Source of the DNA: an uncultured Desulfomonile sp.
GTDB lineage: Bacteria; Desulfobacterota; Desulfomonilia; Desulfomonilales; Desulfomonilaceae
NCBI GenBank assembly: GCA_964528855.1
Contig: CAZGVM010000002.1
Location: 1-54,116, forward strand
DNA length: 54,116 nucleotides
Direction of reading: 5' to 3'
The notes under the pieces are model-generated. The model was not told where the DNA came from and did not search any database. It worked only from the letters and a program-made list of their open reading frames with translations. The position numbers and the translations under genes were made by a program. Below, one piece after another: positions 22,042 to 36,921 of the stretch (its first letter is position 1; each line of letters starts with the position of its first letter).

Positions 22042-22204
22042 TTTTGCATCCAGCCATTAAGGAACGAATCAGATGTTTTCACAAACTACAGATTCAATGA
22101 TTAAAAAGATGTCGGAAACATTCGTCAATGCCAAAACGCGAATATCGGCAATAGAATCAAATTGCACGCCCCCATGATATATCCGAAGACGTGCGATCTG
22201 ACAA

Positions 22205-22597
22205 CTATTGTGTTGTTTGCGTTCCGCTTCCGATGAGAGGCAAAACTTTTTCAATTTTGAAGAAAACCACATGCCTTGACAAATCTTTGGAAAACATTGA
22301 GTAATCACATCGCCTGCATATTTCAGCAATCAATGCGTCATCAGTCTGCTCTCGAATCTTGGTAAGACATATTCTTTTCCCGGAATAGCCTCCGCCGGAT
22401 TCTATGAACAGATATGTAGCAGAAGGATTTTCCGACAAATTGGCGTAAGTCTTCTTTTCCCTCATTATGAAGGCAATAGTCTCTTCATCCATAAAATGTG
22501 GACGAGCATAAACAGCGGCGTTGACTTCACCCTTTTTATCAGCGGTGGCAATTATTCCGTAACCCTTTTTCAAATCGAAGTATTCACTAAGTTTCAA
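22205..22597 (-). CDS. Pyridoxamine-5'-phosphate-oxidase-fold (flavin-binding split-barrel) protein
   Basis: 130 aa (...GIIATADKKGEVNAAVYARPHFMDEETIAFIMREKKTYANLSENP...). The call is by eye. It is the last gene of the long minus-strand run. Confidence 0.55.
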   Translation of the reverse strand: MKLSEYFDLKKGYGIIATADKKGEVNAAVYARPHFMDEETIAFIMREKKTYANLSENPSATYLFIESGGGYSGKRICLTKIREQTDDALIAEICRRCDYSMFSKDLSRHVVFFKIEKVLPLIGSGTQTTQ

Positions 22598-22643
22598 ATG
22601 ATTCCTCCCGAAGTAAAAATTCTTAGTATCTAGCTAGTTGCTA

Positions 22644-24935
22644 TCAAGCTTTGCGAATATAAACAAGAGGGCCTTGTTCCAAAAATTCTGACGGGTTGAC
22701 CCCTTCCGAACGCGGCTTGTCAAAAAATTGGTTCGTCTTGTCAATAGAGTAGGGTGTTGCCCCCGCCCCCCTATAACCATATCCGTTCGCCAACGCTACG
22801 ACCCCGGGTCTTATACCAGGAGCTATCTGAACTCTGACCGTTCTTTTTACTGATCCGTCAGAACTTTCGATACTGATCAATTCGCCTTGTTTCAATCCTC
22901 TGGCTCCAGCATCTACAGGATTGATAACCAGGCGATTTTCAGGCAGGGTTTCCAACAGCCAGGAATTCAAACCTGATTTCGGAGACCTATGAAAAGACTG
23001 GCTATAGGTGATCAAATTCAGAAAACCCTTGTCAGAACCGGCTTTAAGTTGAACACGACCTTCCCATCCGGATGGATTCACTTTATAGCCGGACTGTTTG
23101 CTAGCTGTCCTGCCAGGTGAGTCAGGCTGTTCGAAATATCCGCCTCTTTCAAACATTTTTTCGACAGTCGCCGAGTCAGTGTTTTTTGTGCGGTGAGATT
23201 GACTGAAAGCCTTGAACAAATCAGCAGTCGCCTTGTAGTAAAAGGCCTTTGCAATGCTGGGAGAATCCGTGGAGACGAAATCTTTTCCAAAATTCATTCC
23301 GAGCGCTTCCGAAAACTTGAAGAGAATATCTTCCATCAGCATCGTTTGCGGAAGAATGGGGAAATATCGCCCGCTTCGCTCGTCAACAGCCCCAACAGTG
23401 GGTGTCCTCAATCCAAACCCGGTTGCTGGACTAATAGATGGGGCCGCACAAATGTCCCACCTTTCCAGATACGTTGTGTCTGGCAAAATAAAGTCCGCCA
23501 TTGAGGCGGTCTGAGAGATGACCGTCTCTATCGCCACTACCAGCGGGAACTCCTTTTGATTTGAAATCAGGCCCGCCATTTTGGGATTCGAGTAAACCGG
23601 GTCAGCCTCCCAAATGACCAATGAATGGCCTGGAGTAAGCGGAGCCGGATCAGAAATTCTCGGTTCAACCGTGCCGAGAACATTTTTTTCCGCCTCTACA
23701 AAAAAGGAATTGTCGTCGTAAGCCAACCCGCCATGTCCTGGTATCGACCCCACCAGTAGATTCAGTGTCAGAATGGCTTCTGCAGCTTCTTTGCCAAATT
23801 GCTGCCTGTAAACTCCTGCGCCAGGAATCACCGCCGCTTGTGGACCTGCCTCGGCCAGCAATTTTGCTATCTCTATGGCCGCTCCTTCGTATGATCCCGC
23901 GTTTTCCGCATATTCTGACCCGCTATGATTCTTTACGGCATTCTTGATGGCTTCATTGTTGGCGCGCACAGCCAGGGGGAACCGATCAAAAAGAGCTTTA
24001 ATGACTCCCAGCGCAAAGCTTAAATCTTTACCGGGTATTATCGGAACCCAAATATCTGCTTTGGCTGCCGAAGTGGATTGACGCGGATCGATCACCACCC
24101 ATTTCAGGCTTGGCCTTGAAATTCGGGCCTCTGTCAGGTTCCGTGCTACCGAAAGCAAGGGCACTCCTGAATCTAATGGAGCAGACCCAAAATTCAGAAG
24201 GAATTTCGCATTCCTGTAATCTGCGTACGTCGAGCCGTATTCATCGCCAAAAACTGACCTGTTGACGGATTTGACCATGTCCTGGGCTAAAACAGAATCA
24301 TCCCTGAAGAGTCGCGCACCGGATAATGATTTGAGGAAACTCTTGATGAAGGTTAACGAACCCCAATCAGCATTCCCCACCAGGAAACCGAAACCCTGTC
24401 CGGCGTCTTTGGCTGCCTTGAATCCGGTGACTTTGCCTTCCCCAAACAAATCACCACCATTGGTGATCTCTGATATTGCTTCGGACCAGGATACCGCCCT
24501 CCACTTGCCTGAGCCACGCGGCCCCACTCTTTTTAATGGCCCGGCTATTCTGAAAGGATCGTATAGAGTCTGAATTCCACTCGAACCTATGGCGCAGATT
24601 GAAGCTCCTATGAGCGCCGCCTGTTCTGGATTTACCAGGAACGGCAGCGGATCACCCTTTGAGATAGGATGGAAAGAACTTCCGCCGATTTTCACTATTG
24701 CGCCCTCAGCGCTGCGGCAACAGATACCGCATCTGCCTTCGCACATGGCGCAAACACTGAAAAGGTTCTTCACGCCGTAGAGACTCTCTATCGGATCGAC
24801 ACCAGGAGCCCCTTTTATGTACTTAGGGACATTAGGCGGGTCTCCAAAAAAACTGCATCCAGCAAATAGTGAAACCCCACCCATCAATGAAGCGGTTTTT
24901 ATAAAATTTCTTCTGGTCAGTTTGGTCATTGCCAT
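22644..24935 (-). CDS. Molybdopterin-oxidoreductase-family large subunit, Tat-exported putative lipoprotein
   Basis: 763 aa with Tat motif TRRNFIK followed by the lipobox-like LFAGC. An FS0-type Cys cluster is present (CAMCEGRC...ICAIGSSG). A C-terminal Molydop_binding-like barrel is present (LVINPVDAGARGLKQGELISIES). By eye there is no Cys at the usual Mo-ligand position. Confidence 0.8.
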   Translation of the reverse strand: MAMTKLTRRNFIKTASLMGGVSLFAGCSFFGDPPNVPKYIKGAPGVDPIESLYGVKNLFSVCAMCEGRCGICCRSAEGAIVKIGGSSFHPISKGDPLPFLVNPEQAALIGASICAIGSSGIQTLYDPFRIAGPLKRVGPRGSGKWRAVSWSEAISEITNGGDLFGEGKVTGFKAAKDAGQGFGFLVGNADWGSLTFIKSFLKSLSGARLFRDDSVLAQDMVKSVNRSVFGDEYGSTYADYRNAKFLLNFGSAPLDSGVPLLSVARNLTEARISRPSLKWVVIDPRQSTSAAKADIWVPIIPGKDLSFALGVIKALFDRFPLAVRANNEAIKNAVKNHSGSEYAENAGSYEGAAIEIAKLLAEAGPQAAVIPGAGVYRQQFGKEAAEAILTLNLLVGSIPGHGGLAYDDNSFFVEAEKNVLGTVEPRISDPAPLTPGHSLVIWEADPVYSNPKMAGLISNQKEFPLVVAIETVISQTASMADFILPDTTYLERWDICAAPSISPATGFGLRTPTVGAVDERSGRYFPILPQTMLMEDILFKFSEALGMNFGKDFVSTDSPSIAKAFYYKATADLFKAFSQSHRTKNTDSATVEKMFERGGYFEQPDSPGRTASKQSGYKVNPSGWEGRVQLKAGSDKGFLNLITYSQSFHRSPKSGLNSWLLETLPENRLVINPVDAGARGLKQGELISIESSDGSVKRTVRVQIAPGIRPGVVALANGYGYRGAGATPYSIDKTNQFFDKPRSEGVNPSEFLEQGPLVYIRKA

Positions 24936-24952
24936 CTCAGAGTGAAACTATC

Positions 24953-25843
24953 TCAACTTAGTGGTATTTCAAATCCAATGAACACGACTGAATAACGCAT
25001 CAGGAAGACTCCGCCGATAATCAGCAGGGAAGCCAAAGCCAGCCAGTTTCGGTTATAACGTGTCTTTGGAGCCAGCAGTATTATCAACGGAACAAGCATA
25101 CCAGCCACGATTTCTCCCCACAAATACAACTTTTCGTGCAACGCAACCATGATGGACGCGTATCCGTCGGCGTTTGAAACCAGGAGGGTCAGCCAGAAAC
25201 ATGCCGTCCAGAAAAGATCCATCAGCAATATTCCTATCATCATGAGTCGCAGGCTTTTGAAAAGGTCAGGATCGAGTTTTTCCTTAATGTATCTTTCCAT
25301 GATCATTGCGACAACTACCAGAAGCGCTATCCCGGAGAGCAGGGCTGACGTAAGAAAGAAACCCGGCATCAAGGCTGAATGCCACCATGCTCTGGCTCGC
25401 ACCAGAGCAAACGCAAACCCCGTGTAGGCGTGAACAAAAATTGCCAATGGAACTGTTAAGGTCCCAAGAACTTTCGTCACTTTATCATTCTTGATAAAGA
25501 TGAAATATATGTAGATCAGGTTGGCTATCGGATAGAGAGTCAGCAGCCAGGAACCGTATGACAGGGCCGAAGTCCGGTTAAAGTATTCCGGAACAAGCGT
25601 GTGCCAGAACCTTAATGGTTGATGTAGGTCCATGATCAGGCAGGCGGGAGCTAGCAGGAGTAAAACAAAAGATATTATGGCCGCTGGCAACGCCATAGGC
25701 TTAAAACGTTTGATGCCAAATACGGTCGATAATGTGGATAGAATAAAAGAACCTGCCGACAAGCCCGTAAAATAGAAATACAGGGGAATATAAATCTTCC
25801 AGGGTATCTCATGGGGAACATTATATAAAACTGTGGCGTCCAT
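24953..25843 (-). CDS. NrfD/PsrC/DsrP-type integral membrane (quinone-interacting) subunit
   Basis: 296 aa with ~8 hydrophobic helices. Its ATG directly abuts the stop of the upstream FeS gene (TAGATG). Confidence 0.75.
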   Translation of the reverse strand: MDATVLYNVPHEIPWKIYIPLYFYFTGLSAGSFILSTLSTVFGIKRFKPMALPAAIISFVLLLLAPACLIMDLHQPLRFWHTLVPEYFNRTSALSYGSWLLTLYPIANLIYIYFIFIKNDKVTKVLGTLTVPLAIFVHAYTGFAFALVRARAWWHSALMPGFFLTSALLSGIALLVVVAMIMERYIKEKLDPDLFKSLRLMMIGILLMDLFWTACFWLTLLVSNADGYASIMVALHEKLYLWGEIVAGMLVPLIILLAPKTRYNRNWLALASLLIIGGVFLMRYSVVFIGFEIPLS

Positions 25844-26587
25844 CTATTTGTCACCGCTATTAGACCAATATGATGCGTTGGGGCTCGGGATGCTCTTGTT
25901 GTACTCCAGAATTCCCTCTCTGAAGTCATCCGTGAAATGTATCCTGCCCTTCAGGTCATGATCCGCCTGAATGTAATAGACTTTCGGCCTGGTTCCCAAC
26001 TCGGGTTTTATGACCGATGTGGGAGTGGAGGCCAACACCCTGAAGACCTCAGATGAAACGTCGTCCATGTCTCCGAAAATTAATGCTTTTGAGAGACATG
26101 CTTCCACGCAGGCCGGTTGAAGAGCGTTTTCAATCCGAAGGGAGCAGAAGTCACATTTGTCGGCCGTGTGTCTTATTGGATTAAAGAATCTGGCGTTATA
26201 CGGACAGGCCGATATACACATTCCACATCCTATGCACTTGCCGTAGTACATCACTATGACACCGTCTTCGTCACGTCTGACTGTCGCCTGCACAGGACAA
26301 ACCTGAACACATGGAGGGGTGTCACACTGATTGCAAAGCCGTCTGAGGAACATGGTTCCCACATCAGGGAAGTTTCCCTTCTGAAGTCCTTTTACCCATG
26401 ATCGCCAAAAACCCAACGGCACATTGTTTTCACTTTTGCAGGCCACCGTGCAACTGTGACAGCCGATGCATCTCCTCTGGTCCACCACCATCGCCCAACG
26501 TCTGGGTTTGGAGCCATCCTTCTCCTGGACAGGCTTTACAGACACTCCCATTCCTGAATTTCCGGTCGGCTTATCAGTCTTCATCAT
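25844..26587 (-). CDS. PsrB/NrfC/DsrO-type four-cluster [4Fe-4S] protein
   Basis: Four Cys groups are present: CIGCHSCTVAC, CNQCDTPPCVQVCP, CIGCGMCISACP and CDFC...CVEAC. I set the start at ATG 26587 (MMKTDKP), 1 nt after the cytochrome stop. The ORF-track start at 26647 would overlap the upstream gene. Confidence 0.85.
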   Translation of the reverse strand: MMKTDKPTGNSGMGVSVKPVQEKDGSKPRRWAMVVDQRRCIGCHSCTVACKSENNVPLGFWRSWVKGLQKGNFPDVGTMFLRRLCNQCDTPPCVQVCPVQATVRRDEDGVIVMYYGKCIGCGMCISACPYNARFFNPIRHTADKCDFCSLRIENALQPACVEACLSKALIFGDMDDVSSEVFRVLASTPTSVIKPELGTRPKVYYIQADHDLKGRIHFTDDFREGILEYNKSIPSPNASYWSNSGDK

Positions 26588-26588
26588 T

Positions 26589-27128
26589 TCATTTTGCCTT
26601 ATGACATCCCAAACAATTGAAGCGACTGAAAGATTCTTTGCCGTCATGGCACGAGCCTGTGGCGCAAGTGGCGCATGCCCTGGGAACGGCGTACGTCACC
26701 ATGACCGTCTCACCATCAACTATTGAATCCGGCACGAAAAGGGTAGAGGCTTCCTTGCCGATATGAACCTTCACAGGCGGAGAATCATCAAGAGCCCTGA
26801 TGACAAATGTGCCATATTTCTGGGGAGCAAATATTTTGTCGTGACAAACGTTGCAACTCTTGTATTTGCCTTCCTGGAAGGTCATGTGCGTATAATGTCT
26901 GAAGACCACCGGACCCGGCGAACCTAAGGCATTATATGAAAGGTTGCCTCCTCCGAATATGCTGGAAAAAGTCAAAATAGCGACTAGAAACCCTCCCAAA
27001 ACAAGGCCTGTCAGGACTATGCCCACTGCTTTAGATTGCAGTTTCCAAAAGTAAGACTGGTCCCTCAGATTCGAAATGAACTCCAGAATTACATTAAGTT
27101 TTCCGTTTTTTTGTGAAACAGCGGCCAT
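26589..27128 (-). CDS. Membrane-anchored trihaem c7/c3-type cytochrome
   Basis: 179 aa with an N-terminal TM segment (VGIVLTGLVLGGFLVAILTF). Haem sites are CNVCH, CATGSCH (CX4CH) and CLGCH. A c7-like FRHYTH.F lead-in is present. Confidence 0.75.
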   Translation of the reverse strand: MAAVSQKNGKLNVILEFISNLRDQSYFWKLQSKAVGIVLTGLVLGGFLVAILTFSSIFGGGNLSYNALGSPGPVVFRHYTHMTFQEGKYKSCNVCHDKIFAPQKYGTFVIRALDDSPPVKVHIGKEASTLFVPDSIVDGETVMVTYAVPRACATCATGSCHDGKESFSRFNCLGCHKAK

Positions 27129-27141
27129 AATAATCCCTGAT

Positions 27142-28896
27142 CTATCTCAAAGTCCCTACGTAATGTGACGTCCATTGACGTTTCCTGACTTCGGGATTGC
27201 CATAATCCGGAAGCACCATAGGAGACACTCTGTCGCCACCAACACCGGCCTCCTCAAGCTCCTTGTGATATTTCCTCACATGGTCCACCGACAGTTTTCC
27301 TATATCAGACCGTGTTTTTACATAATTTCCGGCGGTTTGGCCGGCCAGTCTCCCAAAAACCGTAATATCGAGAAGAGAGTTGCCCATGAGTCTGTTGGCG
27401 CCATGCACTCCGCCTCCAACTTCACCTGCCACAAAAAATCCCTCAACGGTCGTCGATCCGTCCCCTTTGTATGCCAAACCACCGTTTTGATAATGGAGAG
27501 TGGGATAAATGAGCATTGGAAGTTTTGATATGTCTATGCCGTAACGTTTGAAAAGTATGAACTTTGCGGGAAACTCTCTTTCTACCGTTCCTTCGCCTTC
27601 GAGCATATCGATCATGGGCGAATCCAGCCACACTCCGAACCTTCCGGGTTGTCCAGGAACAGGCGCTCCTTTTCCAACTTTTTCGCATTCCCGTATAATG
27701 CTGGCTGATTCTATGTCGCGAGGCTCACGCTCAAACACAAACTGGTCACCGTCTATGTTTACAAGATTGGCGCCTGCTCCCCTGACTTTTTCTGTGATGA
27801 GAAGTCCTTCAGCCTGTTCCGGAAATACGGCTCCGGTTGGATGAAACTGCGTGGCGTGTAAAAATCTGACCTGAATGCCTAAACGATACCCCATGACCAG
27901 TCCGTCACCGGTGGCGCCATAATGATTTGTGGTCATGAAACGGCTCATGTGAAGCCTTCCAGAGCCGCCGGTGGCCATGATCACCGCTTTGGCCTTTACG
28001 ATAAAGTATTCTTCTGTCTCCAGATTGTAGAGCACTGCGCCTGAACAGCGCCCTTTGTCGTCAACCAGTAGCTCAACTGCCGGTGAAAATTCCAGAACCC
28101 CGATGTCTTTAACCCTGTTACGAGACTCGTCACGCAGTGTTCTCATTATTTCCGCGCCCGTCATATCACCCGCATAGTGCATTCTCTTTCTGCAGGTTCC
28201 TGCGCCATGCAGTGTAAACATTTTGCCATCCGGCCATTTGTTAAACATGCATCCGAGCTTTTCCAGCCAGGCTATGGCTTTTGGGGCTTCAGTCACCATG
28301 GTCCGCACAAGATCCGGATCATTTTCAAAGTGCCCCCCGCCCATAACATCAAGAAAATGGTAGTAAGGTGAATCTTTCCAGCTTTTCGTAGACGCCTGCA
28401 TGCCGCCTTCGGCCATCATTGTGTTAGCATCTCCGTGCCTTAATTTAGTCGCTATGATGACGCGGGCTCCTTCTTCCTGGGCCAGAAGTGCGGCTGCCGT
28501 GCCGGCCCCACCCCCACCAATTACCAGCACGTCCGTTTCGTAATGAACTTCCTTAAAATCTATACTATCAGGGTCCACGCGGCTTTTTGCCTCAAAAGTG
28601 TCCGCTATCTCCTGGGCTATGGCCAAACCTTTGCTAGGCCCAACCTTCAACTCCCGTAAAGCTCCTGCCCGGAAATCAGGGTGGTATTTTTCCAATCGGT
28701 CACGACGTTGATCCAGAGTGAGAGCTGGGAACTCCTGCCCGGCCTTTTTCTTCATCACTCGTTCAGGACGGGTCTTCTCAACCCTTTTTATAAATTCCAT
28801 CAATTCTGCGGTGTATCCCATAAAATCCTCCGGATCAAAAAAGCTCTTGTTTCGCTTCAAAAAGGCTTTGCCACCATTTTTCAAGTATGTGGTCAA
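27142..28896 (-). CDS. SdhA/FrdA/NadB-superfamily FAD flavoprotein with ~110-aa N-terminal extension
   Basis: 584 aa with VLVIGGGGAGTAAAL, MATGGSGRL, QFHPTG and GFFVAGEV..GVHGANRLMGNSL. The TTG start overlaps the upstream stop (TTGA). Confidence 0.8.
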   Translation of the reverse strand: MTTYLKNGGKAFLKRNKSFFDPEDFMGYTAELMEFIKRVEKTRPERVMKKKAGQEFPALTLDQRRDRLEKYHPDFRAGALRELKVGPSKGLAIAQEIADTFEAKSRVDPDSIDFKEVHYETDVLVIGGGGAGTAAALLAQEEGARVIIATKLRHGDANTMMAEGGMQASTKSWKDSPYYHFLDVMGGGHFENDPDLVRTMVTEAPKAIAWLEKLGCMFNKWPDGKMFTLHGAGTCRKRMHYAGDMTGAEIMRTLRDESRNRVKDIGVLEFSPAVELLVDDKGRCSGAVLYNLETEEYFIVKAKAVIMATGGSGRLHMSRFMTTNHYGATGDGLVMGYRLGIQVRFLHATQFHPTGAVFPEQAEGLLITEKVRGAGANLVNIDGDQFVFEREPRDIESASIIRECEKVGKGAPVPGQPGRFGVWLDSPMIDMLEGEGTVEREFPAKFILFKRYGIDISKLPMLIYPTLHYQNGGLAYKGDGSTTVEGFFVAGEVGGGVHGANRLMGNSLLDITVFGRLAGQTAGNYVKTRSDIGKLSVDHVRKYHKELEEAGVGGDRVSPMVLPDYGNPEVRKRQWTSHYVGTLR

Positions 28897-29672
28897 ATGA
28901 AAGATTTGTCATCCGGCGTCCAGTCTTCAGGGGCCGTATGAGGTTCCATCTGCCGATCCACATAGAGTTTTCGCAAAGTTTCCGGGTCAGCGGCCATGAG
29001 TTGGTCCAAAGCTTTGTCATACCTGTGGGAATTTATTTTCTCCACCATGTCTTCCACGTGTTTAGCTTGAGGCCAAATATGCCGCCCCGTAATTCGTCTG
29101 CACATTATGGCGATATTATATTGGCCAAGTTCAGCTGGACACCGGGACGCGCAGATGCCGCACATCACGCAGGACATGGAAATTTCCGCGGCCTTTTCAA
29201 CATCTCCCCTGAGCGCGGCCGAGACATACTCCATGACCGAAATTTCCATAGGACATGATTTGGTGCAGGTGTTGCATCCCATGCATTTCGCAAGTTCCGG
29301 ATAGTATTTCAACAAAGTCTGAGCTTCGGGCTTGAGTTCCTCCAGATTGTAAACGGCCCTGTTCGCTGGGAAAAACGGAACCATTGTCAGATACATGTTT
29401 GGAATAACAACCGTCTGGCAAGCCAACCCAACGCTTATTTTGGAGCTGCCAGGCATCCTGTAGACCGTAGCGCATGCGCCACAAATTCCGCCACGACAAC
29501 CGCAACCGCGTATCAATTGGTAACCGGCATATTCGAAAGCCTTTTGAATGGTTAGAGTGCTCGGAACCATGTATCTTTTTCCCATTATGAAAATGGGAAC
29601 AAGATCAGTCCTTGCCGCTGCTTCGCTCGTTGTCTCGGTTTGCTGAACAGCCCCTTGAACCATTGAAGACAT
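28893..29672 (-). CDS. SdhB/FrdB-like iron-sulfur subunit ([2Fe-2S] plus 2x Cys4 motifs)
   Basis: Motifs present: CGCRGGICGAC...LAC, CMGCNTCTKSCP and CVMCGICASRCP. I set the start at ATG 29672, 7 nt after AAGGAAG. The ORF-track TTG at 29717 abuts the upstream stop. Confidence 0.8.
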   Translation of the reverse strand: MSSMVQGAVQQTETTSEAAARTDLVPIFIMGKRYMVPSTLTIQKAFEYAGYQLIRGCGCRGGICGACATVYRMPGSSKISVGLACQTVVIPNMYLTMVPFFPANRAVYNLEELKPEAQTLLKYYPELAKCMGCNTCTKSCPMEISVMEYVSAALRGDVEKAAEISMSCVMCGICASRCPAELGQYNIAIMCRRITGRHIWPQAKHVEDMVEKINSHRYDKALDQLMAADPETLRKLYVDRQMEPHTAPEDWTPDDKSFI

Positions 29673-29717
29673 GAAATCACTTCCTTTCTCAAAAACGCCT
29701 ATATTCAACCGCCTCAA

Positions 29718-30197
29718 TTATCTGGCTAAAAAGACTCCGATCATCACTCCCAGGATCAACGCCATTATGGCCATGTAATAGTTGTCCAGAGACGTAATCT
29801 TAGGGGCCGGCTGAATCGTCTCCGGCACTACTTCATCAACTATGTAATCCTTGTAACACGTGTCAACCTGAGGACAGGCCAGAACACATGAATAACATTG
29901 CTCACAATCTTCACCAACGCACGATTCAAGGGCGAAAGACGTCCTCTGTTGAGTTTTGTCAAATCTTTTTGAGTCCTTACGAAGGACAGGGCATGAATCC
30001 ACGCAGTTGCCGCATCCAAGACAGCCCTTGTCGCCTGTGATGTCTAATTCCGCGTCATTTATGTAAAGCCTGTGATAGGGTTCCATCCCTTTGGAAAGAA
30101 GCCTGAACCTGGCCACAGGAGGTTCTTTGGTCTGCAAAATAACATTTGCGACTTCTTTGTTCATCCGGTCTTTGGAACTATCCCTGGTCGTGGTCAT
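29718..30197 (-). CDS. 2x[4Fe-4S] ferredoxin-like protein with C-terminal TM tail anchor
   Basis: 159 aa with CLGCGNCVDSCP and CEQCYSCVLACP. The C-terminal hydrophobic segment is YYMAIMALILGVMIGVFLA. GGGAG lies 7 nt upstream of the ATG. Confidence 0.75.
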   Translation of the reverse strand: MTTTRDSSKDRMNKEVANVILQTKEPPVARFRLLSKGMEPYHRLYINDAELDITGDKGCLGCGNCVDSCPVLRKDSKRFDKTQQRTSFALESCVGEDCEQCYSCVLACPQVDTCYKDYIVDEVVPETIQPAPKITSLDNYYMAIMALILGVMIGVFLAR

Positions 30198-30258
30198 CTA
30201 AACGCTCCCATAACGCCCGTAAATGGCTCATCTCAGCTCCGATCCAGCTATGCCTCGA

Positions 30259-31227
30259 TTAGAATTCATGGAATTCCCTGTAAATTCCCTTGGAACGGTT
30301 GTCAAAAACCGCATTGATGTCATCCCCAAACTTGTTTGAAACTCCACGAGCCGCAAATGTCCTGGTCTCTCGTTTCTTTTTATAATTATCCAGCCAGTCC
30401 GGTGTCATTGTCGGATGGCATTTTAAACAGTTTTCCAGATTGTAGCTTTCACGGCATTCAGATTTAAATATCCTCGTCTTGTAGTGAATTTGACCGTTGT
30501 GACATCTTCTGCATGTTGATTCTGCAGGGAAAGAAACCATCCACCTCGGATTAGCCGATAACTTGTCCCAAGCCTCGTCTCGCGCTGAAGCAAACTGCCC
30601 AACGGTCATTGGCTGGATTTGACCTGCCCTGAAAGAATGAGATGCCAGAGAATGACAGGAGTCACAGGACATGTGATTCACTTCGGCGTACTTGACGTCT
30701 TTGTCGGACCTCAACGGATCCTGGTCCTTGAAACGTTCATGACATTTAGAACAGGCATTTTCTCTGGCCAACACATGCTTTCGGTGGTCCATCAGCAACC
30801 CGATTTCTCTCAGGTCGCCCGGCGGCATGTCTCTCTTGTAGACGGTCTTGCGAAAAATTGCCGCGTAATGGCAGGTCTTGCAATTGTCGCTCGGTACCCT
30901 GGTTTTGTAAAAAAGTCCCGAAATTTGAGGTTTTCTGGGATCCATTTGCGGGACAAGGTAAGAAGCTACGTGCAACAGACCACGAAATTTTGAAGCCACG
31001 GTATTTTTTGGGCTGCCCTCGATGTGACAGTTGGCGCAAGCCACCAGTTCGTGGGAAAAACCTCTGTTTTCAGCTATCAACCTGCTTTTCATCCAATCGA
31101 CATAGGCCGCCTGCTGTTGATGACAAGCCATACACGTAAAGCTCCGAACGGAAACCTCAGCGAGCAAACCTGCCACCAGCAATAACGCAACAACGCTGAT
31201 CACTATGATAGTCGGGCCCTTGGACAT
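30259..31227 (-). CDS. Membrane-anchored heptahaem cytochrome c, NapC/NirT/NrfH-like N-terminus
   Basis: 322 aa with an N-terminal TM segment. There are seven CxxCH sites (CMACH, CANCH, CKTCH, CSKCH, CDSCH, CRRCH, CLKCH). The start overlaps the upstream stop by 1 nt (TGATG). Confidence 0.8.
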   Translation of the reverse strand: MSKGPTIIVISVVALLLVAGLLAEVSVRSFTCMACHQQQAAYVDWMKSRLIAENRGFSHELVACANCHIEGSPKNTVASKFRGLLHVASYLVPQMDPRKPQISGLFYKTRVPSDNCKTCHYAAIFRKTVYKRDMPPGDLREIGLLMDHRKHVLARENACSKCHERFKDQDPLRSDKDVKYAEVNHMSCDSCHSLASHSFRAGQIQPMTVGQFASARDEAWDKLSANPRWMVSFPAESTCRRCHNGQIHYKTRIFKSECRESYNLENCLKCHPTMTPDWLDNYKKKRETRTFAARGVSNKFGDDINAVFDNRSKGIYREFHEF

Positions 31228-32255
31228 CAGGCGGTTTCCTTCCCGGTTTCAATGCGCTGCCGGATTTTTTTCTGGCGAGCCGCCTGAAAAGCGGCGGATA
31301 TGATCAGAGGGCCAGAGTTGCCAATGGGACACTTGCAGGCGCATCGACCACATCCCACACAATATTTTGAAAGTTCCATAACACGTTCATATTCCCCGAG
31401 CCTGGTCAAAAGCACCAACCCCATAGGCATTTGAACGCCTTCCACTTCTTTCAGCGGGCACACTCCTACACACGAAGCGCAGTTGTAACAGTTTATGGAT
31501 CGGCCGGTGCCTGGAACCAGCATCGACTGAAGCGCATACTCAAAAACCAAAAAAGCCGCAAAAATTATGGCCAGACTGTTCAGGGTCACGCGATCCGGCG
31601 CCTGGCCAATGAAAGTGCTTAAGTAAGCTCTTGAGAATATATTATATTCTGGAAAATCAGGAATGCCTTTTGTCAGGGCGGATTCAATCGCGTTTATATA
31701 ACCTGTGAGAGTCTCGGCGCCCCCTCGAAACATTTCAGGCTGACTGGGTCTTTCCAGCATCCCATTTTTCAGAATTTCCGTCTTGAAAGGAGAAATCTGA
31801 TTGTCCAATACCGAAATCAGGTCCGAATATTCCAGGGTCTTGATTCCCACGATCCGTCGATTCTTGACTTCTGCCTCGACTTTGATCGACCCCCTGAAAC
31901 CCTGACCCTCCCCTACGTATTTTCCATCGTGGACCTGAGAAATGCCGGCGCCCCAGGGACGCTTGGCTATACGATCCTGATCCACTGCCGTAACATTGTA
32001 GTAAGAAATGAAATAACCGGCTTTCACAACCAATATAACTATTATTAGATACCAGATATTGCGCGAGCCTGTTTTACGGTATTCCCGGTAGTAAGTGACC
32101 AGCAATGTCAAAACAATCGCCACCGTCAGGATGTACCGGCTCGAGGGAAATAATATGGCTACCAGCGCCGCATAGATTAATAGCCTGATTCCCCTGGAGT
32201 TGACCGCCTCCCACAAAAATCCCAGCGGATCACGCAATAGCCTTGACCAAGTCAT
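31227..32255 (-). CDS. Mini-NosR-like protein: 3 TM, periplasmic FMN_bind-like domain, TM, then cytoplasmic 2x[4Fe-4S]
   Basis: 342 aa with N-terminal hydrophobic helices. The FMN_bind-like core is DGKYVGEGQGFRGSIKVEAEVKNRRIVGIKTLEYSD...GGAETLTGYINAIESAL. A further TM follows, then CYNCASCVGVCP and CVGCGRCACKCP. Confidence 0.65.
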   Translation of the reverse strand: MTWSRLLRDPLGFLWEAVNSRGIRLLIYAALVAILFPSSRYILTVAIVLTLLVTYYREYRKTGSRNIWYLIIVILVVKAGYFISYYNVTAVDQDRIAKRPWGAGISQVHDGKYVGEGQGFRGSIKVEAEVKNRRIVGIKTLEYSDLISVLDNQISPFKTEILKNGMLERPSQPEMFRGGAETLTGYINAIESALTKGIPDFPEYNIFSRAYLSTFIGQAPDRVTLNSLAIIFAAFLVFEYALQSMLVPGTGRSINCYNCASCVGVCPLKEVEGVQMPMGLVLLTRLGEYERVMELSKYCVGCGRCACKCPIGNSGPLIISAAFQAARQKKIRQRIETGKETA

Positions 32256-32772
32256 CTATGTATTCCTTTCCTACAAGACCTTGCGCTAACGCCAGTTTGA
32301 GAGTTTGTTTGGGCACCACGCCGCCAAGAATGGCTTGCCTTGTTTCGTGCTGCATGGTCGCAAACATTTGTGGCAAAGGCAGGTACTGCACGCAAAAACT
32401 CTGACAATTACCACAGCGAATACATTTCAGGCCACCGTTGCGGATAAAACGATCATAATCGAGCACCCGGCCCGCTACTACCAGTTCGGCCTGCAGCGAT
32501 ATTCCCACGGGGCATCTGTCCTGAGTGGCGTAACATGCCCGACATTCGTAGCAATAAATGGTGGCGGGATTCAACCTGAACAGCGGCTTGATTACTACAC
32601 TTAACATGGCGGCAACTATTCCAAACAGCGCCACCCGGTCAAGATTCATAGTCCAGCCACGATCCTTGAGGTTCGTGAAAAACTGATACCTGTGAATCCC
32701 GGGTAGAATTACCGGCTGTTCAGTATCTTGCCTTTTGGCCCCAATCTTTGGGATGTCCTTTTTATCCGACAT
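32230..32772 (-). CDS. Membrane-anchored HdrC/NapH-like 2x[4Fe-4S] protein
   Basis: 180 aa with one TM segment (VALFGIVAAMLSVVI), then CYECRACYATQDRCP and CIRCGNCQSFC. It has a 26-nt overlap with the next gene. Confidence 0.65.
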   Translation of the reverse strand: MSDKKDIPKIGAKRQDTEQPVILPGIHRYQFFTNLKDRGWTMNLDRVALFGIVAAMLSVVIKPLFRLNPATIYCYECRACYATQDRCPVGISLQAELVVAGRVLDYDRFIRNGGLKCIRCGNCQSFCVQYLPLPQMFATMQHETRQAILGGVVPKQTLKLALAQGLVGKEYIDDLVKAIA

Positions 32773-32794
32773 GAGCCTTTTTCCCTACGTCATA

Positions 32795-32941
32795 TCAGTG
32801 AGGCAACATGGCTGACATCAGAATACCTGCTATCAAGCCGCCCAGAGCGCCCTGGACAATTTCCCCGGGAGATGTCATATCCAGGGCCCAGGCTATTATA
32901 GCTCCAGACAATACCCCTACGAACGCAAATATTATCCACAT
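32795..32941 (-). CDS. Unannotated 48-aa hydrophobic (two-helix, Gly-rich) micro-protein
   Basis: My own translation of the minus strand: MWIIFAFVGVLSGAIIAWALDMTSPGEIVQGALGGLIAGILMSAMLPH*. It sits in the 255-nt gap between the permease and the FeS gene, and its stop is 22 nt from the next start. It is below the ORF-track size cutoff. The SD sequence is weak. Confidence 0.4.
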   Translation of the reverse strand: MWIIFAFVGVLSGAIIAWALDMTSPGEIVQGALGGLIAGILMSAMLPH

Positions 32942-33027
32942 CAACAAGGCGCAGCCTCTGTTTCACCACAGCTTTATCGATTCCGCCGGGAGAATTGTCA
33001 AATCATTGAGTTTGGAACCAGATAAAA

Positions 33028-34731
33028 TCATAACCCTGGACCACTTAAGGTCGCCGTCATCCTCTTGGACAGCATTTTGGGGACCATGAATCCAATCAAG
33101 GCGGCAGCGATCAGGCCACCAATCGCTCCCTGTCCTATCTTGACAAAATCCATCTCGAAGACAGCGAAAGCCAGTATAGCGCCACTTAATGCCCCTCCAA
33201 TGAAAAACCCGACAAGTTGAATGTAATAGTTGTTCGGCGAATCTTTCCTGAATAACTTCGAACCGATAACCAGCAACAGAATATTGACGAACGCTATCAC
33301 TACGGCAAACGCCACTATCATTTTTATATCCTGAAAAAATCTCGGGTCTGATGGCTGGAATATTGACAGATTCAGAAACTTCATAAAAATTGCGGCCATT
33401 GGGGCCATGATGGCCATGGAGGCAAAAGTGTAGGCGCCCTTGATAAAGCCTGTCTCGGCCCTCATTGTGCCTTCACCCATCATGCCGCCACCCCCCAGAG
33501 GTGAAGGTCCACAAGATGTGGTGGCGTTGATTATGTATGCCGCCATTACTATGGCCAACTGGGACCAGTTAAGAAAATCGTACTGGGCCGGCCCAAACAG
33601 GTAGAGCACCGGCACGAGAGCCGCTGTTAGAATTCGCGCGCATGACAATGGCAGTATTGTCTGGAATTGAACGAATATCGCCAGCATTCCCGCCACGCCC
33701 AAAAACTGCACGCTCACAAGACTGTTTAGAATCTGTCCTAAGGCTTTGAATCCATCTGTAGCCGCCAAGGCCCCGGCAGCGAGAAATCCTGCTGCCATCG
33801 CCGTTACCGGAAGTAGAATTATGCCTTCCAACAGATCGTTCAACCTGATGCGACACACGATTATCATCAAGATGGCGCCTGCCACCAGCACCGACTGGAC
33901 CGGCATCTTCCCGAGCGGCTGAAAAATTGCAATCAGCAATGAAACTACAAAAATAATCAGGGCCAGATAGCCCTCAAGAGGAGCTTTTATTTCAGGCTCC
34001 GAGTGGAGTCCCCCAGAGGCCGAAGCCGGCGCTTCACGAAGCGATACGTCATTCGGATAAATCTTTTGACTTATGAGCTTCAGGAAAAGAGCCACAACCG
34101 CTGTTCCCAACATCAGTGAAAATGCCTGAGGCGCTCGTAGAATGCCGTCGGAAGCAGTAGCAAAAAAACTGCCCAGAAAACCTTCGGCTATCTGTCCCAC
34201 TCCACCGATAGGCGAAGGGCCGCACGATCCCATCGCATTCCGTGTAAACGCTCCTATCAAAACAATAAGTTGGGACTTTGTCAGTATCCCCAGTCCACCT
34301 TCGAACCCAAAAGTAAAAAGGAGTGGAAGCAGCGCGGCGGCCAGAATTCGGCCGCAAGGCAGTGAGGATATCACCGGCAGGTTGATGAGGATAACTAATG
34401 TCCCGACCAGACCTATCGGGCTTCGTCTCAACAATCGCAATAGCGCCTTTAGAGCTTCAAAGCCGCCTGAAGCCTTCAAACCACCGGCAAGGAAAAGTCC
34501 TGTCAACAGAGCCGTTATAGGATGAAGAATGATTCCACCTAAAAATTCATTTGGCATGAGCAAGACGGCTTGTATGCCGTAGGCCGAATATTTAAACACA
34601 GCCCCGACAATCAGGCACAATACGGTCGATATGACGAGAACCGTTTGAACGGGCGTACGGATATAACCGAACAATGTAGACAGCATCAGGGCAAGAAAAA
34701 TTCCCAGGTTTATGTACCCTAAATACTCCAA
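33028..34731 (-). CDS. Internally duplicated polytopic permease with conserved SCGPSP(I/L)GG loops
   Basis: 567 aa, highly hydrophobic. The two halves share LP(C/S)(G/C)(A)RIL(A/T)AAL..., NA..SCGPSPIGGVGQIAEG and NATTSCGPSPLGGGGMMGEG. Family not recognised. Confidence 0.7.
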   Translation of the reverse strand: MEYLGYINLGIFLALMLSTLFGYIRTPVQTVLVISTVLCLIVGAVFKYSAYGIQAVLLMPNEFLGGIILHPITALLTGLFLAGGLKASGGFEALKALLRLLRRSPIGLVGTLVILINLPVISSLPCGRILAAALLPLLFTFGFEGGLGILTKSQLIVLIGAFTRNAMGSCGPSPIGGVGQIAEGFLGSFFATASDGILRAPQAFSLMLGTAVVALFLKLISQKIYPNDVSLREAPASASGGLHSEPEIKAPLEGYLALIIFVVSLLIAIFQPLGKMPVQSVLVAGAILMIIVCRIRLNDLLEGIILLPVTAMAAGFLAAGALAATDGFKALGQILNSLVSVQFLGVAGMLAIFVQFQTILPLSCARILTAALVPVLYLFGPAQYDFLNWSQLAIVMAAYIINATTSCGPSPLGGGGMMGEGTMRAETGFIKGAYTFASMAIMAPMAAIFMKFLNLSIFQPSDPRFFQDIKMIVAFAVVIAFVNILLLVIGSKLFRKDSPNNYYIQLVGFFIGGALSGAILAFAVFEMDFVKIGQGAIGGLIAAALIGFMVPKMLSKRMTATLSGPGL

Positions 34732-34787
34732 CGATTATCTCCCTATGACCCTAGCAAATGATGCTGACCGTTATTGCAAACCAATTT

Positions 34788-35114
34788 CTAGACCCTGGCT
34801 GGTCCGCATGCCTTTCCTGACCTCTGTTGAAACCACGGGGTGTCCACAACATATCCATTTGAAGAATTGAAAATCCGTACCTGAGTTCCTACCGTAAGTC
34901 TTCCCATGCATGCCGTGCAACTGTTCAGCTCAGCCTCGATTACAGAACCGTCATCTAGTTTAACCCTGGCTGTCAGTACCGGTGAGACCAGTAAGCCCAG
35001 GTCGGAATCTTCAAATCCCACTATTATTCCACGACTGGATCGTCGAGCACGGTATATCTCGGCCGTTAAAAATACTATTAGCAAAAATATTAATGTGACA
35101 GTTTCCAAATCCAT
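34788..35114 (-). CDS. Small N-terminally anchored protein (108 aa), unknown function
   Basis: N-terminal TM segment (VTLIFLLIVFLTAEIY) followed by a ~80-aa soluble domain containing CTAC. No family recognised. Confidence 0.5.
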   Translation of the reverse strand: MDLETVTLIFLLIVFLTAEIYRARRSSRGIIVGFEDSDLGLLVSPVLTARVKLDDGSVIEAELNSCTACMGRLTVGTQVRIFNSSNGYVVDTPWFQQRSGKACGPARV

Positions 35115-35165
35115 TTTCTTGAGATCACCACGCTCCGCTTAAAAGCGGCGACCATGTCACGTAAT

Positions 35166-36080
35166 TTAAATTTTTTTCACCCTGTTGTTACCGCTATCTG
35201 AGACATAAACAAATCCGTTTTTTTCCACTATACCTGTTGGTCTTCTCAGATCAGCGTCACCCGAGCCTTCTTTTCCAATGACTGCAAGCAACTTTCCTTC
35301 GGGACTGAAATGCTGAATCCTGTGGTTCCCGGTATCTGCGATCCATATAGATCCGTCGCTAGCCACAAACATTCCCTGTGGCAGATTCATCTGGCCCGGA
35401 GCGCTTCCCTCCGATCCAAAACTCCGCCTGAACACATTTTCCCTGTTAAAAAACTTTACCTGACCGTGTTTGCTGTCTAGCACTGCTATCTCGTTGTCAG
35501 GCGTATGGGAACATGCGGTCGGCAATCTGAACTGATCATCAGCGTCTCCAAGGTCACCTATGACCGAAATCAACTCATGGTTCCTGAAAACCTGTATCCT
35601 GTGATTTCTGGTGTCAGCCACGAGCATTCTCTTTTGGTCGTCCACGTAAACTCCTTGCGGAGTCGAGAAACAGCCGCCGATGCTCCCTACCGAACCTATT
35701 GACCTCTTTACCTGACCGTTTTTGTCGAAAACCTGTATTCGACAATTGTTCGAATCGACAATGTACAGCAGGCCTTCCTCATCACAGGCTATTCCCTTGG
35801 GATAGTTCAGTCTACCGATATGAGCGCCTGGCTTTCCAAAGTAATCAGAAGGCACAAGATCGTCATTCAGCTTTGAGATACGGTATACCGGAGGCTCGCT
35901 GACGAACAGGTTGCCCTCCGGATCAAAAGCCAGGGCAAAAGGGTTGTTCAGAGAATGGGAGTCTTTTGGTGTGGGGGCAGATGGTGATTCAGTTGCGCCA
36001 GTGATTTTAGCCGCGCCGACCGCCAGCGTTGATGCCACTCCAGCGGCCCCCAGGGTTTTGATGAATTCACGTCTTTTCAT
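35166..36080 (-). CDS. Tat-exported six-bladed NHL-repeat beta-propeller protein
   Basis: 304 aa with Tat motif KRREFIK plus a hydrophobic segment and AxA. About six repeats of the ...P.G(I/V)A.D..G.(I/L)(Y/W)(I/V)(A/V)D..N(H/C)RIQ(V/H)F type are present. Confidence 0.8.
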   Translation of the reverse strand: MKRREFIKTLGAAGVASTLAVGAAKITGATESPSAPTPKDSHSLNNPFALAFDPEGNLFVSEPPVYRISKLNDDLVPSDYFGKPGAHIGRLNYPKGIACDEEGLLYIVDSNNCRIQVFDKNGQVKRSIGSVGSIGGCFSTPQGVYVDDQKRMLVADTRNHRIQVFRNHELISVIGDLGDADDQFRLPTACSHTPDNEIAVLDSKHGQVKFFNRENVFRRSFGSEGSAPGQMNLPQGMFVASDGSIWIADTGNHRIQHFSPEGKLLAVIGKEGSGDADLRRPTGIVEKNGFVYVSDSGNNRVKKI

Positions 36081-36153
36081 TGAGCTATTTCTGCTCTCAT
36101 GTTGAACTTATCAAATACAGATGGCGCAGTCTTGATGGCTGGTCTCTCAGGCC

Positions 36154-36182
36154 AATCTAATACCAAGCATAATTCTAGTCAA
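36154..36182 (-). promoter_or_regulatory. Sigma70-like promoter candidate heading the 15-gene run
   Basis: On the minus strand: TTGACT (36182-36177), 17-nt spacer, TAGATT (36159-36154). It lies ~70 nt upstream of ATG 36080. Confidence 0.45.
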
Positions 36183-36258: not shown

Positions 36259-36921
36259 TCATGCAAAACGCATTATTTCATTAACAGACGCTCTTTTACT
36301 CCTGAACAGACTCGCCTTGTCGGTTGGATGCGGATAGCCCAGGGCTATTCCAATCACAAGCTTAAAGGTTTCTGGAACCGAGAGAGTTTTTCGCACTATG
36401 TCCGGGAAATGCATTGAAGCCGCCAGATAGATCGTTCCCAATCCCTGTTCGGTGGCAAGATAACAGATGGTCGTCCCGATTGACCCTATATCCAGGCACG
36501 AATAGGGCTCGTTCATCTCTGCATTTATGAAAAGATATATGATGGAAGGGGCGCCGAAGAATCTGTACATGTTAAGGTAATGCTGTTTACGGGCTTCCTT
36601 GTCATCTCGCTCAATCCCCATGTAAGTGAAAAGTTCTGACCCCAACCCCATGTATCTTCCTTTATAAAGTTCAGGAAAGATCACCGGCGTCTTGATGTCC
36701 GGACGCGGAGCAGTGCCTTTCTTGCCCTCCTCTTCAAATGCGTCTGCCAGTTGTTTCGCCTTTTCGCCATCTGCAACCACTATTTCCCATGGTTGGGTGT
36801 TCCCCCATGAAGGCGCCCATCGCGCGTTGTCTATTATCCTGGTTACTATTTCTCTTGAAACTGGTTTGGGTAAAAAAGATCTTATGCTTTTGCGGTTCAA
36901 AATCGACTCTTCCAGATTCAT
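36259..36921 (-). CDS. Nitroreductase-family flavoprotein
   Basis: MNLEESILNRKSIRSF...APSWGNTQPW is typical of the family. I set the start at ATG 36921, 7 nt after GGAGGG. The ORF-track start at 36936 is a GTG inside the SD sequence. Confidence 0.85.
   Translation of the reverse strand: MNLEESILNRKSIRSFLPKPVSREIVTRIIDNARWAPSWGNTQPWEIVVADGEKAKQLADAFEEEGKKGTAPRPDIKTPVIFPELYKGRYMGLGSELFTYMGIERDDKEARKQHYLNMYRFFGAPSIIYLFINAEMNEPYSCLDIGSIGTTICYLATEQGLGTIYLAASMHFPDIVRKTLSVPETFKLVIGIALGYPHPTDKASLFRSKRASVNEIMRFA

Follow-up and report, generated by a model that had tools for sequence, protein, structure and literature searches.

Which electron-transfer system is encoded by the run of minus-strand genes at positions 22205-36080 of a 54,116-nucleotide (nt) stretch of DNA from an uncultured Desulfomonile sp. 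(contig CAZGVM010000002.1; the whole stretch is referred to below as the window)? The run consists of 15 consecutive co-directional open reading frames (ORFs), as listed in a first-pass annotation of this DNA and as borne out by the ORF layout, and their products had been proposed there to form a membrane-spanning redox system that matches no characterised complex. Our analysis suggests that 14 of these genes specify one membrane-bound respiratory complex, in which a cytoplasmic fumarate reductase head of the type found in Tfr and in the NADH-dependent fumarate reductase (NDFR) would be fed from the periplasm and/or from menaquinol. We give this reading about an even chance of being correct. 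The genes, the adjacent ORF and the candidate promoter are as follows, in the direction of transcription.

36154-36182, minus strand: candidate sigma-70-like promoter TTGACT-17-TAGATT (from the sequence and boxes in orthologous loci)
35166-36080, minus strand: NHL six-blade beta-propeller with a twin-arginine translocation (Tat) signal, 304 amino acids (aa), predicted periplasmic (Pfam NHL, E 1e-37)
34788-35114, minus strand: p108, 108 aa, with an N-terminal transmembrane (TM) helix and a conserved CxxC..R..G motif (no known family)
33028-34731, minus strand: TM567, 567-aa polytopic membrane protein of an orphan family, with two 237-aa repeats (internal repeat and invariant Cys motifs)
32795-32947, minus strand: pep50, 50-aa two-helix membrane peptide (paralogue of the TM567 C-terminal hairpin)
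32230-32772, minus strand: FeS180, 180-aa bitopic protein with one TM helix and an HdrC-like 2x[4Fe-4S] domain (Pfam Fer4_8/Fer4_10)
31227-32255, minus strand: NosR/NapH-like analogue, 342 aa, with N-terminal TM helices, a domain of flavin mononucleotide (FMN)-binding FMN_bind fold, a further TM helix and a C-terminal 2x[4Fe-4S] domain (Fer4 matches and fold)
30259-31227, minus strand: TM-anchored heptahaem cytochrome c with a NapC/NirT-like N-terminus (Pfam Cytochrom_NNT and Cytochrome_C7)
29718-30197, minus strand: Fd159, tail-anchored 2x[4Fe-4S] ferredoxin, 159 aa (Fer4 matches)
28893-29672, minus strand: SdhB/FrdB-like iron-sulfur (FeS) subunit, 259 aa (motifs and family profile)
27142-28821, minus strand: SdhA/FrdA/TfrA-like flavoprotein, 559 aa (FAD_binding_2, E 2e-71)
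26589-27128, minus strand: TM-anchored trihaem c7-type cytochrome with CxxCH, Cx4CH and CxxCH motifs (Pfam Cytochrome_C7, NCBIfam nanowire_3heme)
25844-26587, minus strand: PsrB/TtrB/NrfC/DsrO-type four-cluster FeS protein (Fer4_11, E 1e-23)
24953-25843, minus strand: NrfD/PsrC-type membrane subunit, 296 aa, about 8 TM helices (Pfam NrfD, E 2e-41)
22644-24935, minus strand: Tat-lipoprotein subunit of the MopB family (Pfam Molybdopterin, Molydop_binding and Molybdop_Fe4S4)
22205-22597, minus strand: adjacent, co-directional PNPOx-fold protein (PNPOx_N, 28.4 bits against a gathering cut-off (GA) of 28.1, hence borderline)

The extent of the unit was defined by a locus survey, in which genomes were scanned with the flavoprotein family and all window proteins were then compared by tblastn. 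The complete set, from the NHL propeller to MopB, was found in seven Desulfomonilaceae species-representative metagenome-assembled genomes (MAGs), and a part of it on a short contig labelled 'Syntrophaceae' (L026). A metagenome scan seeded with the L026 cytochrome gave three longer contigs of this second lineage (L087, L090 and L091), each carrying all 14 genes in unchanged order at 30-72% protein identity to the window. Identities between the second lineage and the window are 72% for NrfD, 70% for Fd159, 69% for the flavoprotein, 68% for pep50, 66% for TM567, 62% for the TtrB-like FeS protein, 60% for the SdhB-like subunit, 59% for FeS180, 47% for the NosR-like protein, 41% for NHL, 33-40% for p108, 37% and 35% for the hepta- and trihaem cytochromes, and 30% for MopB. 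Over both lineages the orthologues span 41-55% (NHL), 33-51% (p108), 66-85% (TM567), 67-86% (pep50), 70-83% (Fd159) and, for NrfD, the best-conserved protein between the lineages, 72-86%.

The flanks of the cluster differ between the two lineages, the nitroreductase-family gene on its upstream side adjoins it only in Desulfomonilaceae, and the PNPOx gene 3' of MopB is absent from all orthologous loci. The conserved unit is therefore made up of 14 genes, from the NHL propeller to MopB (36080-22644), and PNPOx (22205-22597), which had been counted as its last member, does not belong to it. With this correction the proposal of a single unit stands, as gene order is the same in both lineages, and the SdhA-like, NosR-like and heptahaem genes, whose co-occurrence in genome neighbourhoods had been suggested as a check, stay together in both. 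The preservation of order at such divergence favours functional linkage of the 14 genes. Their products are moreover predicted to be spread over both faces of the membrane, in agreement with the earlier membrane-spanning claim.

Some loci show local irregularities. In the second lineage, an unrelated 188-aa ORF lies between the SdhB-like and SdhA-like genes (L026 2614-3180; L087 about 7721-8667), with the rest of the cluster undisturbed. Elsewhere, L009 (13922-15199) and L013 carry the MopB ORF in two pieces, and the TM567 gene is truncated in L010 (4079-5359). Frameshift errors of long-read MAGs may be the cause, or else decay of the genes.

What, then, would such a complex act upon? When the flavoprotein was aligned to the SdhA and FrdA structures in the PDB, counterparts of FrdA His232, Thr244/Glu245, Arg287, His355 and Arg390 were present, so that the substrate-binding and catalytic residues of the SdhA/FrdA family are all found, and these H, T-E, R, H and R positions are conserved in 74-75 of 75 homologues from many phyla. 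Two other features of SdhA/FrdA are missing from the window flavoprotein, namely the His that binds flavin adenine dinucleotide (FAD) covalently as 8-alpha-N3-histidyl FAD (E. coli FrdA His44), replaced by Asn in 74 of the 75 homologues, and the C-terminal Succ_DH_flav_C domain of quinone-linked enzymes, for which Pfam gave no match. The family has instead a conserved N-terminal extension of 95 aa, and its best NCBIfam match is TfrA (NF004900), at 332 bits against a cut-off of 718. In SdhA/FrdA enzymes, non-covalent FAD goes with fumarate reduction rather than with succinate oxidation. The FAD of the window flavoprotein is predicted to be non-covalent, and the exchange of His for Asn points to fumarate reduction. 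The substrate had been left as unknown in the first-pass annotation; given that all FrdA-type binding residues are kept, that the covalent-FAD His is missing and that orthologues lie by sucCD, it is probably fumarate.

In the FeS subunit encoded beside the flavoprotein, a CRGGICGAC motif for the [2Fe-2S] cluster is accompanied by two CxxCxxCxxxCP motifs, and none of the three varies among 15 phylum-wide homologues. A single-sequence phmmer search of the PDB returned a generic ferredoxin domain only, and a family profile was required to match FrdB of W. succinogenes (1e7p_B, E 7e-5) and SdhB of M. smegmatis (6lum_B, E 2e-5). As the Pfam Fer2_3 domain is undetected, membership in SdhB/FrdB holds at the level of remote homology. 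The two proteins form a pair, referred to here as AB, which is nearly always present across 86 surveyed loci encoding the flavoprotein family (in Thermodesulfobacteriota, KSB1, Zixibacteria, Gemmatimonadota, Aminicenantes, Dehalococcoidia, Fermentibacteria, Nitrospirales and others), with the SdhB-like subunit paired with the flavoprotein in about 70 loci. The AB family is thus widespread and crosses phyla, at 57-73% identity (L002-L086; e.g. L003 1-11674, L016, L027 and L056).

It is in its neighbours that the AB pair varies. In at least 70 loci from many phyla it adjoins HdrB/HdrC(/HdrA/MvhD) genes. As a rule it is accompanied by an HdrC-like protein of 135 aa and a CCG (HdrB-like) protein of 295 aa, the latter in 50 loci, and HdrA and MvhD are also often found, in the layout HdrC-HdrB(CCG)-[HdrA-MvhD]-B-A; an alternative context is HdrA-HdrC-HdrB-HdrL-MvhD-FeS. 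In several lineages sucCD lies downstream, which ties the pair to succinate/fumarate metabolism, and the differing neighbours indicate that its electron partner is exchangeable. In the two lineages of the window, no Hdr genes occur at the cluster, and membrane and periplasmic redox genes stand in their place. The simplest reading of these gene contexts is a partner swap, in which the fumarate reductase head stays the same and would be coupled to the membrane rather than to soluble Hdr proteins. The Hdr-linked AB family itself looks like an uncharacterised, possibly electron-bifurcating, fumarate reductase, and tfrAB-hdr associations of a similar kind have been noted in clusters of the reductive tricarboxylic acid (TCA) cycle (PMC6315080).

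The closest relatives of the AB pair are TfrAB of Methanothermobacter, the NDFR FrdABCDE of Hydrogenobacter thermophilus and the tfrAB-like genes linked to flxABCD-hdrABC (PMC6315080, PMC13147460). With Tfr and NDFR it shares a cytoplasmic flavoprotein and FeS subunit without FrdC/D anchors, the non-covalent FAD (here predicted) and, in the wider family, flanking HdrB, HdrC, HdrA and MvhD genes. It differs from TfrAB in the N-terminal extension and in the TfrA score given above, from TfrB in that the 259-aa FeS subunit has no CCG domains, which are separate genes in other lineages, and from Hdr-linked Tfr/NDFR in having cytochromes, NrfD, MopB and membrane FeS proteins instead of Hdr. The cluster suggests that one AB pair can be joined either to a soluble Hdr/MvhD system or to a membrane cytochrome/quinone system, in a natural module swap. 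It also bears on the supply of electrons to the AB-only fumarate reductases of many anaerobes, whose unknown donors were recognised as an open problem in a 2026 genome survey (PMC13147460).

If the head is wired to the membrane, which proteins would connect it? Fd159 has a C-terminal TM helix (140-158) and invariably adjoins the SdhB-like gene, so it is likely to be both the membrane tether and the electron donor of the FeS subunit. FeS180 has its TM helix at residues 47-65, and its CxxCxxCx6CP and CxxCxxCxxxC motifs are invariant in both lineages. In the NosR-like protein, residues 100-215 were modelled by AlphaFold with a predicted local distance difference test score (pLDDT) of 80-90, and a Foldseek search with this central domain returned the FMN-binding domains 8p2b and 8p2a at the top (target TM-score 0.76-0.82), followed by NqrC and RnfG. 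PF04205 is detected in some orthologues and not in the window protein. At the position of the flavinylation site ([S/T]GA[T/S]), the window protein has RGGAET, and some orthologues have RGATET. Between the FMN_bind-fold domain and the 2x[4Fe-4S] domain lies just one TM helix (223-245), which places these two domains on opposite faces of the membrane. The protein thereby resembles NosR, PceC and the NapH-like carriers, which share an extracytoplasmic FMN_bind fold, TM helices, a cytoplasmic 2x[4Fe-4S] domain and a respiratory gene cluster, and of which the NapH-like FMN/FeS proteins have been proposed to be transmembrane electron carriers (PMC8238504). It differs from them in its much smaller size (342 aa) and in the lack of an ApbE gene in the cluster.

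For the heptahaem cytochrome, PF03264 was detected at 27.1 bits (GA 24.1) over residues 8-122, and all seven CxxCH motifs, along with seven distal His, are kept without exception across the lineages. With seven haems it departs from the tetra-/pentahaem NapC/NirT/NrfH type, it scores 34 against a cut-off of 134 in the NrfH equivalog model, and no sequence homologue was found in the PDB.

The last four genes of the unit encode a second group of redox proteins. The haem motifs of the trihaem cytochrome are conserved in both lineages. The four-cluster FeS protein scores below the cut-off in each of its NCBIfam models (TtrB 215, NrfC 202 and DsrO 185, the last against a cut-off of 200), and the number of TM helices of NrfD was estimated from its hydropathy profile. 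MopB is matched best in the PDB by PsrA of T. thermophilus (E 2e-29), but has Ala where PsrA has its Mo ligand, Cys173. Across 7 MopB orthologues neither Cys nor Ser nor selenocysteine is conserved at this site, while the FS0 Cys motif, the Tat motif and the lipobox Cys are. MopB is also the fastest-evolving protein of the cluster, at 30-52% identity as compared to the 72-86% of NrfD. The earlier label of a Mo-family subunit is thus supported by the MopB domains and weakened by the missing ligand and the fast evolution. Because of these two properties, MopB may be a scaffold similar to those of Qrc and alternative complex III (as QrcB or ActB; PMC6303296) rather than a catalyst. QrcB, however, is devoid of any cofactor (PMC13059093).

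Several known complexes combine modules of this kind. QrcABCD and alternative complex III also have an anchored multihaem cytochrome, a MopB-like protein without ligand, a four-cluster FeS protein and an NrfD-type subunit, facing the periplasm (PMC6303296, PMC13059093), and Qrc, whose MopB is free of cofactors, is composed of the same subunits (PMC6303296). The module in the window differs from Qrc in its order (cytochrome-FeS-NrfD-MopB), in having three haems as opposed to six, in an NrfD of about 8 helices and 296 aa as opposed to the 10 helices of QrcD, in a MopB that keeps the FS0 Cys motif whereas QrcB is cofactor-free, and in being part of a putative operon with a fumarate reductase; its scores in the Qrc equivalog models lie well below the cut-offs (QrcB 143 of 440, QrcC 122 of 400, QrcD 45 of 570). 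DsrMKJOP, Hmc and Tmc similarly link periplasmic cytochrome c, FeS and NrfD proteins to a cytoplasmic FeS protein from which a reductase in the cytoplasm receives its electrons, and the order trihaem-FeS-NrfD is identical to that of DsrJ-O-P. The Dsr equivalog cut-offs are again not reached (DsrO 185 of 200, DsrP 69 of 350), the cluster has neither a DsrM-type cytochrome b nor a CCG protein like DsrK, HmcF or TmcB, its cytoplasmic acceptor is of SdhAB type and a MopB is added. PsrABC, PhsABC and TtrBCA, finally, share the B-C-A composition, with a Tat-exported MopB carrying FS0, a four-cluster FeS protein and an 8-helix NrfD/PsrC. They differ in that here the Mo-ligand Cys is replaced by Ala, a trihaem cytochrome is added, MopB diverges much faster than its partners and the equivalog scores are far below the cut-offs.

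How might these parts work together? In the arrangement that we favour, the catalytic head would consist of the flavoprotein with non-covalent FAD and the FeS subunit with one [2Fe-2S] and two [4Fe-4S] clusters, the soluble HdrB/HdrC(/HdrA/MvhD) partner being replaced by membrane-anchored di-cluster domains and periplasm-facing input modules. Electrons of the periplasmic cytochrome c pool and/or of menaquinol would enter via the NrfD module, the NapC-like heptahaem cytochrome and the FMN_bind-fold domain, and would cross the membrane through the NosR-like protein or TM567, the two candidates for this passage. Three di-cluster domains (Fd159, FeS180 and the C-terminus of the NosR-like protein) would form the chain on the cytoplasmic face, from which electrons would reach the SdhB-like subunit and then FAD, where fumarate would be reduced inside the cell. 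The passage of electrons across the membrane would result in charge separation. In total, the complex is predicted to hold about 10 haems and 13 [4Fe-4S] clusters, together with a single [2Fe-2S] cluster, FAD and possibly FMN. If this arrangement is true, Desulfomonilaceae-type bacteria, which are common in wetlands, soils and groundwater, would gain a route from periplasmic donors to a cytoplasmic acceptor comparable to that of Hmc, Tmc and Dsr in sulfate reduction.

This reading has some drawbacks that need to be considered. No membrane cofactor that would bridge the bilayer was found in the cluster, which has no cytochrome b and no NapH CX3CP motif. Neither PF12801 nor the NosR models matched the window NosR-like protein in Pfam and NCBIfam, and the canonical flavinylation Thr (of SGAT) in the FMN_bind domain is not conserved in the orthologues, so that membership in the NosR/NapH-like family is unproven. 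Nor does the reading account for a complex with two modules of quinone type, namely NrfD and the NapC-like cytochrome. MopB keeps its FS0 motif, an Asp lies near the ligand position in most, although not all, orthologues, and Mo enzymes of the arsenite oxidase type need no protein ligand; MopB may thus be a real Mo/W enzyme with a periplasmic substrate of its own. The SdhA family covers other substrates, and L-aspartate oxidase has the same catalytic residues. The carriers, uncultured relatives of sulfate reducers, are lastly all MAGs (cluster look-ups gave MAG proteins only), in which the proteins are annotated as 'hypothetical', '4Fe-4S dicluster' or 'FAD-binding'.

Could one of the orphan membrane proteins provide the missing passage? 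TM567, p108 and pep50 belong to no family in Pfam or NCBIfam. TM567 is internally duplicated (35% identity over 234 aa, E 2e-22), an exhaustive search found only 73 clusters of relatives among 1.84 billion representatives, and a profile search of PDB sequences gave nothing even at E <= 10. Its AlphaFold model (mean pLDDT 54.6) was too poor for a fold search. It had been described as a dedicated substrate permease; what can be said is that it is a duplicated polytopic membrane protein, which nothing marks as a transporter, and it could be a redox or structural subunit just as well as a transporter. When distant homologues, down to 26% identity, are included, just 29 columns remain invariant, and four of these are Cys, located in LPCGR and SCGPSPxGG motifs that each occur once per repeat. 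NqrD/E and RnfA/E have an intramembrane Fe-S site, which four invariant Cys from two homologous halves resemble. On this ground TM567 and pep50 might be a new kind of intramembrane redox subunit that, with the NosR-like and heptahaem proteins, would form a quinone-independent transmembrane wire to the fumarate reductase. The four Cys of the two repeats could in that case bind an Fe-S centre at mid-membrane, or form a redox-active dithiol there. We regard this wire as doubtful, although worth stating, as it would make the system a previously undescribed class of respiratory complex.

Half-size homologues of TM567 with a single repeat (P0256, P0258 and P0263) are fused N-terminally to beta-helix/NosD-like or CARDB domains. 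Pfam found only extracytoplasmic domains in the distant and fused homologues, which is uninformative on function, and the fusions indicate a link to an extracytoplasmic partner, as with the NHL propeller here. The pep50 peptide is 48% identical to the C-terminus of TM567 orthologues over 44 aa (blastp); because it is kept at the same position in all orthologous loci, its ORF is likely a real small gene. p108 likewise keeps its position in both lineages. The NHL protein has a twin-arginine motif, KRREFIK, that is conserved in the orthologues, and the PDB sequences closest to its propeller are NHL domains of TRIM71 type. The cluster places TM567, pep50 and p108, as unannotated families, in a respiratory context, which offers a start for finding their function.

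Does the proposed complex run in the opposite direction? Succinate or another cytoplasmic donor would in that case be oxidised and electrons passed to periplasmic cytochromes, to the quinone pool or to a periplasmic acceptor handled by MopB or NHL, which could serve syntrophic or extracellular electron transfer. The architecture is symmetric as to direction, the carriers are Desulfomonilaceae- and Syntrophaceae-type MAGs from anoxic habitats, the adjacency of sucCD in relatives fits either direction of the TCA segment, and Qrc-like and NapC-like modules are known to run either way (PMC6303296). We nonetheless consider reverse flow unlikely, given the Asn that replaces the covalent-FAD His in nearly the whole family. 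Enzymes with non-covalent FAD, such as TfrA and flavocytochrome c3, are poor at succinate oxidation, and succinate (+30 mV) needs an input of energy to reduce menaquinone or haems of low potential.

It is similarly improbable that the cluster is a mosaic of independent systems, made up of an envelope or transport unit (NHL, p108, TM567 and pep50), a tethered fumarate reductase (FeS180 to SdhA) and a separate periplasmic reductase, related to Psr, Ttr and Phs, of an S, Se or As compound (c7 cytochrome to MopB). Each type of module is found independently elsewhere, and the third group in particular has a B-C-A gene order, TtrB, TtrA, PhsA and PsrA as best NCBIfam and PDB matches, an FS0 motif in its MopB and an 8-helix NrfD of the type that usually accompanies true Mo enzymes (PMC6303296). 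These likenesses have to be set against scores far under the equivalog cut-offs and against a MopB that has no Cys ligand and whose evolution is about twice as fast as that of the FeS and NrfD proteins beside it. The 14 genes are moreover found together, ordered and tightly spaced, in two lineages with different flanks, and a partial membrane-module set occurs in 0 of the 86 flavoprotein loci: on contigs that are long enough, the set is complete or the context is another one, of Hdr type or otherwise.

Least probable is that the complex is a respiratory enzyme, reductase or dehydrogenase, whose substrate is some other dicarboxylate or enoate, or L-aspartate, imported by TM567. In favour of this, reductases of urocanate, acrylate and methacrylate belong to FAD_binding_2, as does L-aspartate oxidase, the scores of NadB models come close to those of Sdh/Frd models, and the flavoprotein family has its own N-terminal extension and lacks Succ_DH_flav_C. 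Against it, the two Arg and two His residues by which the carboxylates of fumarate are bound never vary, the partner subunit is of SdhB type, sucCD adjoins in several lineages and nothing supports TM567 as a transporter.

Is the system, then, a new one? At the level of domains, Pfam agreed with the first-pass annotation for NHL, the Fer4 variants (in four proteins), FAD_binding_2, the c7 trihaem cytochrome, Fer4_11 and NrfD, as well as for the NapC/NirT N-terminus, Molybdopterin, Molydop_binding, the Fe4S4 domain and PNPOx. For FMN_bind and Fer2_3 Pfam was silent in the window proteins, and these two calls are carried by the fold and by profile and motif, respectively. The claim that the set matches no characterised complex was upheld: none of the 15 proteins reaches a curated NCBIfam cut-off, no NCBIfam family describes this gene set and our literature searches found no description of the cluster. 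The combination thus appears to fit no described respiratory complex. Every redox module is of a known kind, and modular recombination is typical of the phylum; TM567 is the potentially new component.

The 14 genes are also plausibly transcribed together, as a single operon is suggested by their spacing, their conserved order and the conservation of a promoter-like box. For gene boundaries, three start codons were corrected with the help of ribosome-binding sites and of the lengths of orthologues. That of the flavoprotein is ATG 28821, preceded by a GGAGG box, while the SdhB-like gene begins at 29672 and the four-cluster FeS gene near 26587 and not at 26647, as judged from orthologue lengths. 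The layout had been described as having gaps of 86 nt or less and several coupled junctions. It is indeed tight and partly overlapping, with gaps of -26 to +80 nt after correction, and the junctions TGATG (31227) and TAGATG (25843/25844) and the 26-nt overlap (32230-32255) are present. The TTGA coupling at 28893-28896, in contrast, is an artefact of ORF extension, because all flavoprotein homologues are 559 aa long and GGAGG precedes ATG 28821; the gap between the SdhB-like and flavoprotein genes is 71 nt.

The TTGACT-17-TAGATT element lies upstream of the first gene, NHL, at 36182-36154 on the minus strand, as had been reported. Taken alone it is no better than chance, as a single-sequence scan found 21 promoter-like sites and 20.0 +/- 4.6 in shuffles. 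A TTGAC-N16-18-TAnnnT box does, however, recur 102-158 nt upstream of NHL in 8 of 10 orthologous loci, where shuffles gave 0.75 loci on average and 4 at most (500 trials), and for this reason a sigma-70-like promoter is plausible here. Terminator-like matches are no more numerous than in shuffles, in line with the earlier remark that none was seen in the short gaps, and Rfam gave no match at E <= 1 between 20000 and 38000, so that neither a molybdenum cofactor riboswitch nor another one was found in the leader. A sigma-54 promoter was also considered and rejected: the window has a GG-N10-GC box that is not kept in the orthologous upstream regions, and the corresponding regulator pair is absent from it. 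In several Desulfomonilaceae genomes, a HAMP histidine kinase and a sigma-54-dependent response regulator lie 3' of the cluster (L001 16723-19552; after MopB in L007-L010).

The genes that flank the cluster in the window are ordinary chromosomal genes. Directly upstream lies the nitroreductase-family gene (36259-36936, minus strand), which is conserved at 64-70% identity in Desulfomonilaceae. The downstream side includes three minus-strand genes (15575-16264, 16637-18538 and 19365-20882), which encode a MobA-like nucleoside triphosphate transferase, about 6 kb from the cluster and possibly for molybdopterin-guanine dinucleotide synthesis, a PA14-domain protein and a 505-aa ORF product with no Pfam match. 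The G+C content of 22001-36000 is 0.48-0.49, slightly above the 0.445-0.46 of the flanks.

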